Assembly: GCF_000092465.1 (NCBI RefSeq)
Contig: NC_014205.1
Span: forward strand, 1,290,001-1,322,000
Length of the DNA: 32,000 bases
Direction of reading: 5' to 3'
Origin: Staphylothermus hellenicus DSM 12710
GTDB lineage: Archaea > Thermoproteota > Thermoprotei_A > Sulfolobales > Desulfurococcaceae
The notes under the pieces: generated by a model
Told to the model about the DNA's origin: nothing
Database searches by the model: none
The model's input: the letters and a program-made list of their open reading frames with translations, nothing else
Made by a program: the position numbers and the translations under genes
Part shown: one piece after another, positions 17,292 to 30,313 of the stretch
Position numbering within the stretch: the first letter of the stretch is position 1
Layout of the letters: each line of letters opens with the position of its first letter

Positions 17292-17462
17292 AAAATTATT
17301 TTTTAAGATACAAATGTATTGGTTCACCCAGAATATATTCACTAATTTCTCTAACAGTTTCAGATACGGTCAAATGCGGATAAGGTATACTTGATGCTTC
17401 TTCTAGCTTGATCTTATTCATGATGAAAGGTATAAATGATGATATTACTTCAGAAGCTAATG

Positions 17463-17710
17463 GGGCAGAAAAGTTCAAGTATTCCAGATTATATTTTTCA
17501 ATATTGATCTGTGCCCCTGTGGGTTGATGGGAGCTATGCTCCGAGACCCATAGGGGGCTTGCTGTAGATGGGAGGCCCGTGCCGTTGGCCTCGACAGCCG
17601 CCCATGACCCCACAACCCCCAAGAGAGGAGTTGTGGAAGGAGGCGGAAGTCCCTACTGTGGACATAAATAAACACAGAAATATACAGAATGACACGGTAG
17701 GGACAAACGG
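17463..17710 (+). mobile_element. MITE-like internal-deletion derivative of the IS607-family element at 27747-29737 (left end plus omega-RNA-like right end, no ORFs)
   Basis: 17463-17500 'gggcagaaaagttcaagtattccagattatat' nearly matches 27747-27780 'gggcagaaaagtttaagtatttcagattatat'. 17521-17710 matches 29556-29737, including the identical runs 'ttgatgggagctatgctccgagacccat' and 'ctgtagatgggaggcccgtgccgttggcctcgacagcc' and the shared terminus 'gtagggacaaacgg'. Removing the element restores the lpd frame (GIFVV-(S/AP)LASEVI). Boundaries are +/-4 nt. Confidence 0.85.
17511..17710 (+). ncRNA. solo omega-RNA (reRNA)-like scaffold carried by the MITE
   Basis: Homologous to the 3' end/right end of the tnpB-bearing copy. 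It is G+C-rich relative to its surroundings. It keeps the hairpins GGAGC-tat-GCTCC and GAGGCC...GGCCTC, plus a helix (17610-17616/17630-17636) that covaries with 29645-29655/29660-29670. Confidence 0.55.
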
Positions 17711-18912
17711 AAACAACAAATATACCATATGGAACATTGTTCTTGCCCATTAGGATCTTTACATAGGAGTACTTGCTATCCTTAATCCTAACCGCTGATA
17801 AATGAGATATTGGCATTCTGATTCTACGATATCTTATTCCTTTGCTTCTGAGTTCTCTCTCCGTATAGCCTATCCAAGCAATTTCTAAACCACTAAAAAT
17901 CGTGTGTGGAATTAATTGATAATTCAAAGAAAATGATTCTTCTCCCAGGATATTTCTTGCTGCTGCGATACTTTCAAGAATTGCTTTATGAGCCAGTAAT
18001 GGTTCTCCAATAACATCTCCTACAGCATATATTCTGAGATTAGTTGTCTGATACTTCTCGTTAACTTTAATAAAACCTTTCTGAGTCGTTTCTACATGTA
18101 CTGTTTCAAGACCTATATTCATAGTTTTAGGCTGCCTACCTATAGCCACTAGGACTTTATCGGCTTCGATGATCTTGTCATTTGCTAGTTTAGCTTTCAC
18201 CATGTTGTTTTCGATTGTTATTTTTCAACGATAGAGTTCTCATAGATCTTAACGTTTTTCTCTCTAAGAAATCTTTTCATAGTTAAGCTTATGTCTTTAT
18301 CGAGGAAGGAAAGTATGTTGGGCATTGCTTCAACAATAGTAACATCTACACCTAACTGTGAAAAAGCATATGCAGCTTCTACACCAATAACTCCACCGCC
18401 CATAATTAGTATTTTTCGGGTTTTTCATCCATGTAGAAAATCTCTCTATTACTTAGCACATGTTTACCATCAAAATTCATGATTGGAAGCGGCATGGGAT
18501 CGGTTCCAAGAGCGAGTATAGTGTTCTTGGAAGAAACAGTATTATTGCCTATCTTGATCTCGGCATTTGTTTTTAGAATAGCCTTAGAGTTTATTATGTC
18601 AACACCGTAGCTTTCTAAGAGGTATTCTATTCCATTACGTGTTTTGCTGACAACCGATGATACCCATTTAGATAAGCTACTCCAATCTATATTTGCGTTT
18701 CCGCCTATTTTCTCAATAGTTCGAAACGCTTCAGCAACATTATATAGAGCTTTACTTGGGACACATCCATAGTTTGTACATTCGCCTCCCAGTAAGTGTT
18801 CTTCGATCACAGCAACTTTTAAACCGTGTCTTGCAAGATATATAGCTGCTGGATAACCTCCTACTCCAGCACCTACTACTGCTACATCATACATTACCGT
18901 ATCTCACCAATA

Positions 18913-26128: not shown

Positions 26129-26223
26129 TGGGCCCGCGGGGATTTGAACCCCGGACCTCCGCCTCTCTAAGCCCATACCAGACACGTCAGGGCGGCGTCC
26201 TAACCAGGCTAGACGACGGGCCC
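26129..26223 (-). tRNA. tRNA-Val(GAC) with a 20-nt canonical (37/38) intron
   Basis: The reverse complement folds as GGGCCCG-TC-GTCT-AGCCTGGTTA-GGAC-G-CCGCC-CTGACG[tgtctggtatgggcttagag]A-GGCGG-AGGTC-CGGGG-TTCAAAT-CCCCG-CGGGCCC-A. The BHB is present: central helix CUGA/UUAG flanked by 3-nt bulges CG|U and AG|A. Confidence 0.9.
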
Positions 26224-27595: not shown

Positions 27596-27801
27596 TTTTT
27601 ACCCTCCACACGTAAATAAAAATGCTTCCTAAATATTATTAGGTATTTTCAAAATAATATATAATTGTCTGAAGATACCCCGATGAAGAATGAACCCGGG
27701 TAATAACTACTGAACATTTATAGATGTAGACAAGGCCCGCATGAGAGGGCAGAAAAGTTTAAGTATTTCAGATTATATCTTTCTGTATCGGATGATGTTT
27801 T

Positions 27802-28440
27802 GTGTTGGATAGGTTGTTGCCTCCTAGGGAGGCTTGTCGTAGGCTTGGTATTAGCTTTATCACTTTGAAGAGATGAATTTATTCTGGTAAGATACGTGCT
27901 GTCAAGACACCTACTGGTAGGTGGATGATCCCTGAGAGCGAGGTAGAGCGAATTATTGGTGGAAGTGGAGGGCAAGGAGAGGTTAGAGCACTGGTTTATG
28001 CTCGTGTATCAAGTAGTGATCAGAGAAAGGATTTGGAGAAGCAAATAAGTGAACTCATGAAATACTGTTCTGCCAGGGGTTATCGGGTTGTTGATGTTGT
28101 AAGTGATATAGGTAGTGGATTAAAAACTAATCGTAGAGGTTTACTCAAGCTCTTCAAATATGTAGTGGACAGAAAAGTAGACAAGGTAGTTATCACCTAT
28201 AGGGATAGGCTCACCAGATTCGGGTATGAATACCTAGAATACTTCTTTAAAAAATTCAATGTAGATATTGAAGCTATCTATGGCGATGAGCCTAGGGATG
28301 CTAGGCAAGAACTCGTAGAAGACCTCACAGCAATCGTAACATCATTTGCTGGAAAATTATATGGAATGAGGAGCCATAAGAAAAAGAAGCTTGTCCAAGG
28401 ATTCAAACAACTCCTAGAAGAGGTTGAGAGGAATGGTTAG
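27802..28440 (+). pseudogene. tnpA: IS607-type serine recombinase TnpA (MerR-like HTH + resolvase catalytic domain) with an in-frame TGA
   Basis: Catalytic 'ALVYARVSSSDQRKDLEKQ' (Ser nucleophile) and 'VVITYRDRLTRFGYEYLE'. Upstream, the same frame encodes the HTH 'LLPPREACRRLGISFITLKR*IYSGKIRAVKTPTGRWMIPESEVERI'. The stop at 27874-27876 (TGA) sits where a Trp (TGG) is expected. Confidence 0.8.
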
Positions 28441-29642
28441 AGTTACTAGAACAGTTGTGGTTGAATCTACAAGGGTTCCAAGAAAGTTGTTTAGGGTTTT
28501 GGTTGAGGTTGAAGGTATGTATCGCAACATGGTTGAGCAATTAACAATACATGCTGTTAGGAATGGGGCCTCAAGCTTTACAAGGCTTAAAGCACTAAGG
28601 TATCGTGAGCTTAGAAAGCTTTACCCAAAACTACCATCACACTACGCATATACAGCGTGTCAGGACTCCTCAACAAGGGCTAAAAGCTTCCTAAGGTTGA
28701 AGAAGCTTGGATGGGTAAAAAGTGGTTATCCTAGGGTTGAGAGGATATCGATATGGCTCGACGACCACTTGTGGAGACTGGACGGGTATACATCTATTAG
28801 GATAGCAACGCATAGGGGTTGGATAAGGATTGAGTTTGAGCCACACAAACTATACTGGAAATATATTAATAGTGGGTGGAAGCCTGCATCAGAGGCAAAA
28901 ATAAAGCTTGACAAACGTAATAGAAAGATCATAATATATCTAGTACTGGTTAAAGATGTTGAACCATATAAGCCTAAGGGATATATACCAGTAGATGTCA
29001 ATGAGAACAATGTAGCAATGCTAGTTGACGGTAAACCCATCCTGCTCGAAACAGATATGAAGAAGATCACTCTGGGCTACTATTATCGGAGGAAGAGGGT
29101 TCAGGAAAAATATGATAAAACCTATGGTGTAAAATCTAGGACTAAGAGGAAGGTACTGAGGAGACTTAGAGAGAAGAAAAAGAAGCACAGTATTAGGTGG
29201 AAGACAGCAAACATTATCGTGAGGGAAGCCCTTAGGAGAGGTTATGGCATAGCTCTTGAACAACTAGGTAGAAGATCAGCAAACAATATGATTAAGAAGA
29301 TAAGAGATAAACAGTTACGGCACAGGATCTTCCAAGCATCTTTTAGGAGTATCCAGAAGGCTATTGCCGAGAAGGCGCGTGAATATGGTGTTCCAGTAAT
29401 ATATGTTGATCCTAGGAATACTTCGAAAACAATGCCCAATACATAAATCACCAATAATATATAGTAATGGGTCCAGGATTGGGAGATGCAGTACCGGTGG
29501 AGAGCTCTGGCACAGAGACATAGTTGCATGCTATAATATTCTCTCACGCACCCTAGGGGTTGATGGGAGCTATGCTCCGAGACCCATGGGGGTTTACTGT
29601 AGATGGGAGGCCCGTGCCGTTGGCCTCGACAGCCACCCATGA
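28433..29642 (+). pseudogene. tnpB: TnpB (OrfB, RuvC-like RNA-guided nuclease family) with a 1-nt frameshift near 29427
   Basis: RuvC-like D/E/D contexts 'IPVDVNENN', 'IALEQLG' and 'WHRDIVACYNI'. The frame breaks at 'act tcg aaa aca A tgc cca', giving ...YVDPRNTSKT then *. The continuation CPIHKSPIIYSNGSRIGRCSTGGELWHRDIVACYNILSR lies in the +1 frame (ORF 29403-29642). Confidence 0.85.
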
Positions 29643-29737
29643 CCCCATAATCCTCTATCGAGGACTATGGGAGAGGTGAAAGTCCCTACCACAAACAAAT
29701 ACACGAATATACAAAATGATACAGTAGGGACAAACGG
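29550..29737 (+). ncRNA. omega-RNA (reRNA)-like scaffold overlapping the tnpB 3' end and the IS right end
   Basis: The position (tnpB 3' end to right end) matches that of known TnpB guide-RNA scaffolds. It is a G+C-rich block in an AT-rich genome. It contains the hairpins GGAGC-tat-GCTCC, GAGGCC-n-GGCCTC, CCCAT...ATGGG, and helix 29645-29655/29660-29670, which shows compensatory changes relative to the MITE copy. Confidence 0.6.
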
Positions 29738-29740
29738 TAG

Positions 29741-30313
29741 CTATATTATCTCTTTCCATAATTGTCTCATTCTTTTCCTTTTCTCGAGAAATGTTTCTCT
29801 CTCAATATATCTATACACTGTGCTGTGCCTCCTTCCCTCAATTAATAATTCAATAGCTGTTTTCGCGATATTGGCTGATTCAAAGTCACCTATTATTGCA
29901 ACATAGTTTTTATATATTGAAACATATGTTCCAGTCATTTCCTCAATAATCTTGCGTGCTTTTCCTCCTTCACCAATGATTCTGCCCTTGACTCTTTGTA
30001 GATGATTAGGTTTGTCTCCCACATATTGTTTTAAATCAATAATCAACAAGACCTGGTCCTCGTCAAGCAGCCTAAAAGCTCTTTCAGGGCTGAAGCCATA
30101 TGCAATTGCTCTAACAACATCTCTAGCCTTCATTAATTCTAATGCTGTAGTTGTAGGAGATGCTGGCTCTATAATGACTGTTCCCGTCGTGGAATCTATT
30201 GTGATAATTGTCCTAGTTCTACGCATTAACTCCTCCTTAATCTTGCCTTCATGCCCTATCAAAACACCTATTCTATCAGGTGGAACTTTCTCATAAAGCC
30301 TCGTAACACCCAT
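29741..30313 (-). CDS. KH-domain RNA-binding protein (archaeal Dim2/Pno1-like)
   Basis: 'VPPDRIGVLIGHEGKIKEEL' and 'RVKGRIIGEGGKARKIIEEMTG' are two KH GXXG motifs. The gene is last in the aIF1A-Rio1-KH operon. ATG 30313 lies 2 nt after the Rio1 stop, whereas the ORF track uses GTG 30343. Confidence 0.85.
   Translation of the reverse strand: MGVTRLYEKVPPDRIGVLIGHEGKIKEELMRRTRTIITIDSTTGTVIIEPASPTTTALELMKARDVVRAIAYGFSPERAFRLLDEDQVLLIIDLKQYVGDKPNHLQRVKGRIIGEGGKARKIIEEMTGTYVSIYKNYVAIIGDFESANIAKTAIELLIEGRRHSTVYRYIERETFLEKRKRMRQLWKEII

Follow-up and report, generated by a model that had tools for sequence, protein, structure and literature searches.

The window, that is, the whole 32,000-nt stretch of DNA that was analysed, carries two related insertions on the + strand. 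The larger of these, copy A (27750–29737, 1988 bp), is a full-length IS607-type element, delimited by a left tip that it has in common with a set of gene-less mini-elements and by the right end GGGACAAACGG common to all copies. Its genes are arranged in the IS607-type layout, tnpA followed by tnpB, where tnpA encodes a serine recombinase that combines an N-terminal helix-turn-helix (HTH) with a C-terminal catalytic domain. A TATA-like box, TTTAAGTA (27758–27765, +), preceded by the purine-rich CAGAAAAG, is kept in this insertion sequence (IS) and in 14 mini-elements, and is presumed from the archaeal BRE/TATA consensus to be the tnpA-tnpB promoter.

Both genes of copy A are broken. The tnpA gene (27808–28440, +) matched Pfam Resolvase (E = 2.3e-23) over residues 22–154 of a 171-aa ORF, with an HTH-like N-terminus upstream that is intact in a paralogue. 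Within this HTH region, an in-frame TGA at 27874–27876 (translation ...ITLKR*IYSGK...) occupies the position of a W in the intact paralogue. The tnpB gene (28424–29727, +), recognised by a Pfam Cas12f1-like TNB domain, is a pseudogene: its frame is shifted by +1 near 29430 and once more near 29590, and is then interrupted by a TGA at 29677–29679, ahead of the ancestral stop, the TAG at 29725–29727. The N- and C-terminal parts of the protein are encoded in different frames in copy A, and in one frame in three other tnpB copies (L005, L023 and L022). No other copy of this IS in the genome is full-length, and copy A is a dead element. It has no counterpart at the matching site of the sister species (G001), where its flanks are adjacent and 4–6 nt by the right end differ.

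The final 190 nt of copy A (29548–29737, +) were matched over the full length of covariance model R1, which was built from a MAFFT alignment of the 17 full copies found in this genome (199.9 bits; fold z = -3.55). The adjoining flank at 29738–29757 (+), where similarity between copies ends at ...ACGG, is the presumed guide segment, a role that follows from the OMEGA paradigm.

Copy B and the gene-less mini-elements

The second insertion, copy B (17466–17710, +), had been taken in the first-pass annotation for a right end only. It instead proved to be a whole mini-transposon of 245 bp, one of 14 such elements in the genome, with a left tip and a promoter-like box of its own. The limits of the insertion, which lies in a dihydrolipoamide-dehydrogenase-like gene on the minus strand, were given by the empty site in the sister species, where the flanks abut with a 2-nt GG overlap and without target duplication. 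The ends of the element, CAGAAA... and ...CAAACGG, are not inverted repeats. As far as can be read from the sequence, the shared GG crossover and the lack of both a duplication and terminal inverted repeats are as expected for an IS607 serine transposase.

Copy B consists of a left-end stub (17466–17511, +), which aligns with 27750–27800 of copy A and with 13 other mini-elements, and a 199-nt scaffold (17512–17710, +) that matched R1 with 211.7 bits (fold z = -5.54). The TATA-like box of the stub, TTCAAGTA (17474–17481), has one T>C change. The segment AAACAACAAATATACCATAT (17711–17730, +), which directly follows ...AATGGGG in the empty site of the sister species, is the presumed guide of copy B, and AAACAACAAATATACC is a candidate target sequence for the copy B RNA. 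The interrupted gene (17296–18894, -), to which Pfam Pyr_redox_2/Pyr_redox_dim were assigned, is read as three separate ORFs (17296–17622, 17475–18203 and 18406–18894), and so may have been disrupted at more than one point.

The 14 mini-elements (230–250 bp) have about 50 bp in common with the left tip of copy A (27750–27800), including the TATA-like box, and the junction between this stub and a right-end module of about 190 nt falls at one and the same point throughout the set. No similarity to tnpB or tnpA was found upstream of the scaffold in any of the 14, and the elements diverge by 12–27% from one another. Across the 1.58-Mb genome (36.8% G+C), 17 full scaffold copies were counted, only three of which have tnpB sequence upstream. 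A further right end, at genome position 1062315 (minus strand), was seen by motif search and is absent from the blastn list of copies.

Base pairing in the two copies

Copies A and B were reported at the outset to be alike over long runs and to diverge in one segment in such a manner that pairing is kept. Direct reading gave the same picture: the copies are 82–83% identical over approximately 190 nt, with long identical runs, and the divergent segment forms a variable hairpin (P4). In copy A, P4 (29645–29670, +) comprises CCATAATCCTC (29645–29655), the loop tatc and GAGGACTATGG (29660–29670), an 11-bp stem whose sole mismatch is an A.C at position 6; it was recovered by alignments, parsimony and RNAalifold. 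In copy B, P4 (17610–17636, +) was identified by direct reading and folding as CCACAAC (17610–17616) paired with GTTGTGG (17630–17636), a 7-bp stem without mismatch that is continued by two C-G pairs beyond a bulged A. Positions 4 and 7 are both T-A in copy A and C-G in copy B, and the A.C at position 6 of copy A is A-T in copy B, all as first described. The ancestral state of position 6 in the lineage of copy A is G-C (ATAGTC/GACTAT, seven copies), and the A.C mismatch is, on this evidence, a recent defect of copy A. Taken alone, the two copies make a case for a structured RNA that is only suggestive.

Four further helices were assigned in copy A, all on the + strand. The P1 stem (29551–29591), CCCTAGGGGTT paired with GACCCATGGGG, surrounds the hairpin GGAGC-tat-GCTCC (29566–29578) and was present in both the consensus and single-sequence folds. 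It is followed by the P2 hairpin GAGGCC...GGCCTC (29607–29627), by the P3 stem CCACC/GGTGA around P4 (29633–29679; from the own-genome alignment), and by the P5 stem (29682–29731; from consensus folds), in which GTCCCTAC and GTAGGGAC enclose a variable, A+T-rich loop. The last pair of P3 in copy A is a C.A mismatch, produced by a G>A change that also creates the TGA noted above. With two pair defects in its scaffold (A.C in P4 and C.A in P3) and both genes broken, copy A itself may be inert.

Covariation in the genomic copies and in relatives

The alignment of all genomic copies, proposed earlier as a check for covariation, comprised the 17 full copies of this genome. Its consensus contained P1 with the inner hairpin GGAGC/GCUCC, P2 (GAGGCC/GGCCUC), P3 (CCACC/GGUGG) around P4, and P5 with the arms GUCCCUACCG/CGGUAGGGAC around the A+T-rich loop. 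Canonical pairs occupied 95.6% of the pair cells, compared with 36–51% when the partners were slid by 1–3 columns, and the compensatory pattern lies far beyond this control; the added copies settle what the first two had only suggested. Double changes were found in four of the seven P4 pairs (U-A/C-G, G-C/A-U, U-A/C-G and C-G/U-A), and one P3 pair occurs as A-U, G-C and G-U among these copies.

The R1 search of related genomes returned at least 24 full-length copies. In an alignment of 32 sequences from relatives, 35 of 49 pairs showed double changes, and none of 500 shuffles reached the observed value on any of five measures. Being fitted to the structure, alignments derived from the R1 search are biased in its favour, which the own-genome alignment and a set of 19 diverse sequences avoid. 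For the latter, unfitted alignment with MAFFT followed by RNAalifold again yielded the five helices, and compensatory changes were present in 30 of 48 pairs. On a FastTree tree, about 81 double events from one canonical pair to another were counted by parsimony, about 30 of them in P4.

The hairpins GGAGC/GCTCC and GAGGCC/GGCCTC had been described as invariant. This held for copies A and B, where they are identical, and very nearly for the 17 genomic copies (P2 does not vary within this genome); it did not extend to relatives, in which both covary. Here, P1 has double changes in 9 of 11 pairs, P2 takes forms such as GAGCCC/GGGCTC and GCCCGC/GCGGGC, and in P5, TACCGC/GCGGTA, TAGAGG/CCTCTA, TAGATG/CATCTA and TGGATA/TATCCA are interchanged. 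Together, these data are taken as confirmation that the helices in both stretches represent conserved RNA structure and that the matched changes are genuine evidence for it.

Two further pairings were considered and set aside. An outer 4-bp helix, CTGT/ACGG, given by RNAalifold on the own-genome alignment, was only 70% paired in relatives and was not predicted on the diverse alignment. Folds of single sequences also offered an ATGGG/CCCAT pairing, which is incompatible with P2 and P3, both of them supported by covariation.

Since in silico folding is about as good for one strand as for the other, the balance of G.U and A.C oppositions is the only evidence on which strand is constrained. In the supported helices, G.U outnumbered A.C by 126 to 47 (2.7 times), which points to a constraint acting on RNA of the + strand, the sense strand of tnpB. 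The equal folding of the two strands, together with the location of the scaffold within a transposon end, would also suit hairpins of single-stranded DNA recognised by the transposase, as at IS200/IS605 ends. However, the excess of G.U would not be tolerated by a DNA hairpin, nor by the opposite strand, and a 190-nt fold of several helices far exceeds an end-recognition hairpin. The linked transposase is, moreover, a serine recombinase; the substrate of these enzymes is double-stranded DNA, with a crossover of 2 bp (PMC6188088), and the shared GG of copy B fits such a crossover. DNA hairpins are accordingly regarded as a very improbable explanation of the fold, and the pairing is treated below as that of an RNA.

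Coding and structural constraints at the tnpB 3' end

The scaffold starts about 180 nt before the tnpB stop in copy A, in the intact copy of this genome (L005) and in relatives (L023, L022, L039, L032 and L034). The tnpB frame crosses the whole of it, with the stop TAG inside CGGUAGGGAC, 6–10 nt before the right end (L005, L023, L039, L032 and L034). As the encoded TnpB tail is also similar across genera (VPLxSTATHDP...LWxRWKSL), the region is truly dual-coding in intact relatives. One tnpB of a relative (L022:1498-1754, genome G008) is without the usual TAG and reads 64 nt into the flank, so that its C-terminus depends on the insertion site.

It could therefore be asked whether the conservation is simply that of the TnpB C-terminal tail of about 60 conserved residues, with the pairing incidental. 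An intact ORF over the whole scaffold and a tail similar across genera would agree with this, as would the change in the 3' arm of P4 from GGA CUA UGG to GGG UUG UGG, which is synonymous (G-L-W). The matching change in the 5' arm, AUA GUC to ACA ACC, is however non-synonymous (I-V to T-T), and coding alone does not predict 30–35 compensatory pairs. The gene-less mini-elements are decisive in this respect: 9 of the 14, copy B included, have stops or frameshifts in the tnpB frame, and the fold is kept. This largely refutes an explanation by the protein alone, which is left with a very small probability; both coding and RNA constraints probably act in the intact copies. In P4, it is the protein that yields to the RNA, because the compensating change in the 5' arm alters the protein and that in the 3' arm is synonymous.

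The earlier proposal that selection acted on structure rather than on TnpB codons was thus upheld, by the lost frames of the mini-elements and by the non-synonymous 5' arm changes. The accompanying statement that P4 of copy A overlaps TnpB codons was not: with tnpB shifted twice and stopped, no intact codons are left there. Of wider use, the gene-less mini-elements form a natural control by which, in a region that is dual-coding throughout, constraint on the RNA can be told apart from constraint on the protein.

The right end and its flank

All copies end in ...GGGACAAACGG and diverge directly after it, and the flanks beyond the right end differ in 18 of 18 cases. From these alignments, the scaffold is seen to end at the transposon boundary, which is fixed by the empty site of copy B. 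When the 18 flank-derived guides were searched against the same genome for second targets, only chance-level matches with two mismatches were obtained. At the other end of the element, the left tip is preceded by 4 nt rich in G and A, with GGGG in approximately 6 of 15 copies, partly reflecting the crossover GG.

The P5 loop (29690–29724 in copy A, 17664–17697 in copy B) includes a GAATGA that is conserved across genera about 20 nt from the right end; read in the tnpB frame, its ATG encodes a conserved Met, with the stop four codons further on. The loop also has ACAGAA-type repeats, similar to the CAGAAA at the left tip. Both motifs are possibly TnpA binding sites.

Possible sources of TnpB and TnpA

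A single intact cognate tnpB was found, a solo copy at 269.0–270.3 kb of the genome (L005:356-1681) in which the D-E-D motifs are kept. A search of PDB sequences with this protein gave weak matches only, to 8hr5 'Transposase' (E = 0.0023) and to a Cas12f1 (E = 0.0052). A second IS607-like element (genome 1163193–1164700, minus strand) has an intact tnpA that is 62% identical and an intact tnpB that is 36% identical to those of the present IS, the latter with a canonical CxxC...CxxC finger. Its tnpA (1164.1–1164.7 kb) was the only intact one found, and this element is a candidate source of transposase for the mini-elements.

In the sister species, a single decayed tnpB/scaffold remnant was observed (G001:C1:1563869-1564215), compared with 18 right ends in the present genome. 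The scaffold family seems either to have expanded after the species split or to have been purged in the sister species. More widely, R1 had matches in 91 of the 151 genomes that were sampled from the class, and many copies per genome were frequent. Many copies in relatives are without tnpB and are preceded by a short stub that includes a TATA-like box and differs in its left-end sequence. This layout, again with different left ends, recurs in many hyperthermophilic crenarchaea.

The state of these genes bears on whether the copies in the window are relics only, the family having been shaped by selection in active lineages so that the covariation records the past. Copy A, in which both genes are broken and two pairs are defective, agrees with this, as do the T>C change in the TATA-like box of copy B, the single intact cognate tnpB that is left, and the fact that the sole intact tnpA found belongs to a second element only 62% identical. 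On the other side, an intact tnpB with its catalytic motifs exists, and the mini-elements have retained 95.6% pairing in spite of their divergence; this points either to purifying selection that is still acting or to working masters that were amplified repeatedly. That the copies are relics and nothing else is rated as unlikely, although not remotely so.

Discussion

Both stretches are very probably the TnpB omega-RNA (reRNA) scaffold of an IS607-type insertion sequence, operating by the mechanism proposed here. The first-pass annotation had suggested a structured RNA of the omega-RNA/reRNA type, and this is borne out by a location at the tnpB 3' end, a terminus at the right boundary, five covarying helices and the excess of G.U. 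The assignment is supported by position, strand, structure and context, and not by homology to a tested RNA, because no curated Rfam omega-RNA family matches. With the gathering score as threshold, only a tRNA was reported by Rfam in the whole window. In the scaffold region, at E values up to 10, only four chance-level snoRNA/miRNA matches appeared, and RF02656 and RF02657 were not among them. The tRNA match (26129–26223, -) covers 95 nt, compared with 71 positions in the model, so this tRNA is probably intron-bearing.

In the proposed mechanism, the omega RNA would be read from the + strand and fold into P1 with its inner hairpin, P2, P3 around P4, and P5. Its scaffold would end with AAACGG at the right boundary and, since it ends exactly there, the guide of a run-on transcript would come from the host DNA next to the insertion. 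A full element would yield the RNA by excision from the tnpA-tnpB transcript, at its 3' end. For the mini-elements, one deletion is envisaged to have fused the left tip with its TATA-like box to the scaffold, creating a small stand-alone guide-RNA gene. According to the published TnpB model, TnpB with its omega RNA would then cut the empty insertion site, favouring retention of the element. Transcription, processing, TnpB binding and cleavage are inferred for these scaffolds.

A more far-reaching arrangement can be imagined, in which the 14 promoter-equipped mini-elements and the single solo tnpB form a dispersed guide library, with about 17 flank guides served by one nuclease in trans. This is considered doubtful. 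If true, it would mean either that all insertion sites of gene-less elements are policed or that the host has taken the system over for another RNA-guided task.

The present analysis gives a covariation-supported secondary structure for an IS607-type omega-RNA family that is common in hyperthermophilic Thermoprotei and absent from Rfam. This is of use for annotation, as these G+C-rich islands repeatedly resemble mystery RNAs or introns, and it could help in choosing thermostable pairs of TnpB and guide. The family is widespread, uncurated and structurally well defined, yet RNAs of its kind are already known, and the understanding of TnpB omega-RNA systems is unchanged by it.

Comparison with known systems

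For ISDra2, overlap of the omega RNA with both the tnpB 3' end and the right end, and use of the flank as its guide, have been reported (Karvelis 2021, PMC8612924). The scaffolds described here resemble the TnpB omega RNAs of IS200/IS605 and IS607 elements (PMC8612924; Altae-Tran 2021 via PMC10691335) in the sense strand, the overlap with the tnpB 3' end, the terminus at the right boundary, the flank as guide and a multi-helix scaffold of 130–230 nt. They differ from known TnpB omega RNAs in that the ORF encloses the scaffold over its full 190 nt, the elements reside in a hyperthermophilic crenarchaeon and the functions of the RNA are predicted ones; no sequence or model similarity to the curated omega-RNA families was detectable. 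Among archaeal examples, the haloarchaeal sotRNAs (RF02656, RF02657) are sense-overlapping transcripts at the tnpB 3' end that are now regarded as omega RNAs (PMC12558985). They likewise come from archaea and from this end of the gene, and the present scaffold matches neither of their models at E values up to 10.

The omega RNA of SisTnpB1 from Sulfolobus islandicus REY15A, located at the tnpB 3' end, guides DNA cleavage at 75 °C (PMC10640517). It is likewise a crenarchaeal TnpB guide RNA in the same position; however, it belongs to an IS200/IS605-type element with an AT-rich TAM on its side, and its scaffold sequence is unrelated to the R1 family. Kinship to this one tested crenarchaeal omega RNA was rejected, the two being different sequence families on comparison.

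A gene-less crenarchaeal element has also been described that depends on ISC1733, which we take to be a member of the IS607 family. The element in question, SMN1, is non-autonomous, measures 320 bp and is moved in Sulfolobus islandicus by the transposase of ISC1733 (PMC3718332). Compared by description only, it resembles the mini-elements (245 bp for copy B) in being a crenarchaeal gene-less element with its transposase in trans.

A parallel in organisation is offered by PATEs, gene-less derivatives of IS200/IS605 elements that often encode omega RNAs (Meers et al., 10.1101/2023.03.14.532601), and by stand-alone mobilised omega RNAs, which work in trans (PMC10691335). Copy B and its 13 siblings likewise keep only the ends and the scaffold, and both TnpB and TnpA would have to be supplied in trans. 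In contrast to PATE-like elements, the mini-elements derive from a serine-recombinase (IS607-type) rather than a Y1 element and are without subterminal DNA hairpins used by the transposase; their left stub instead puts a TATA-like box directly before the scaffold.
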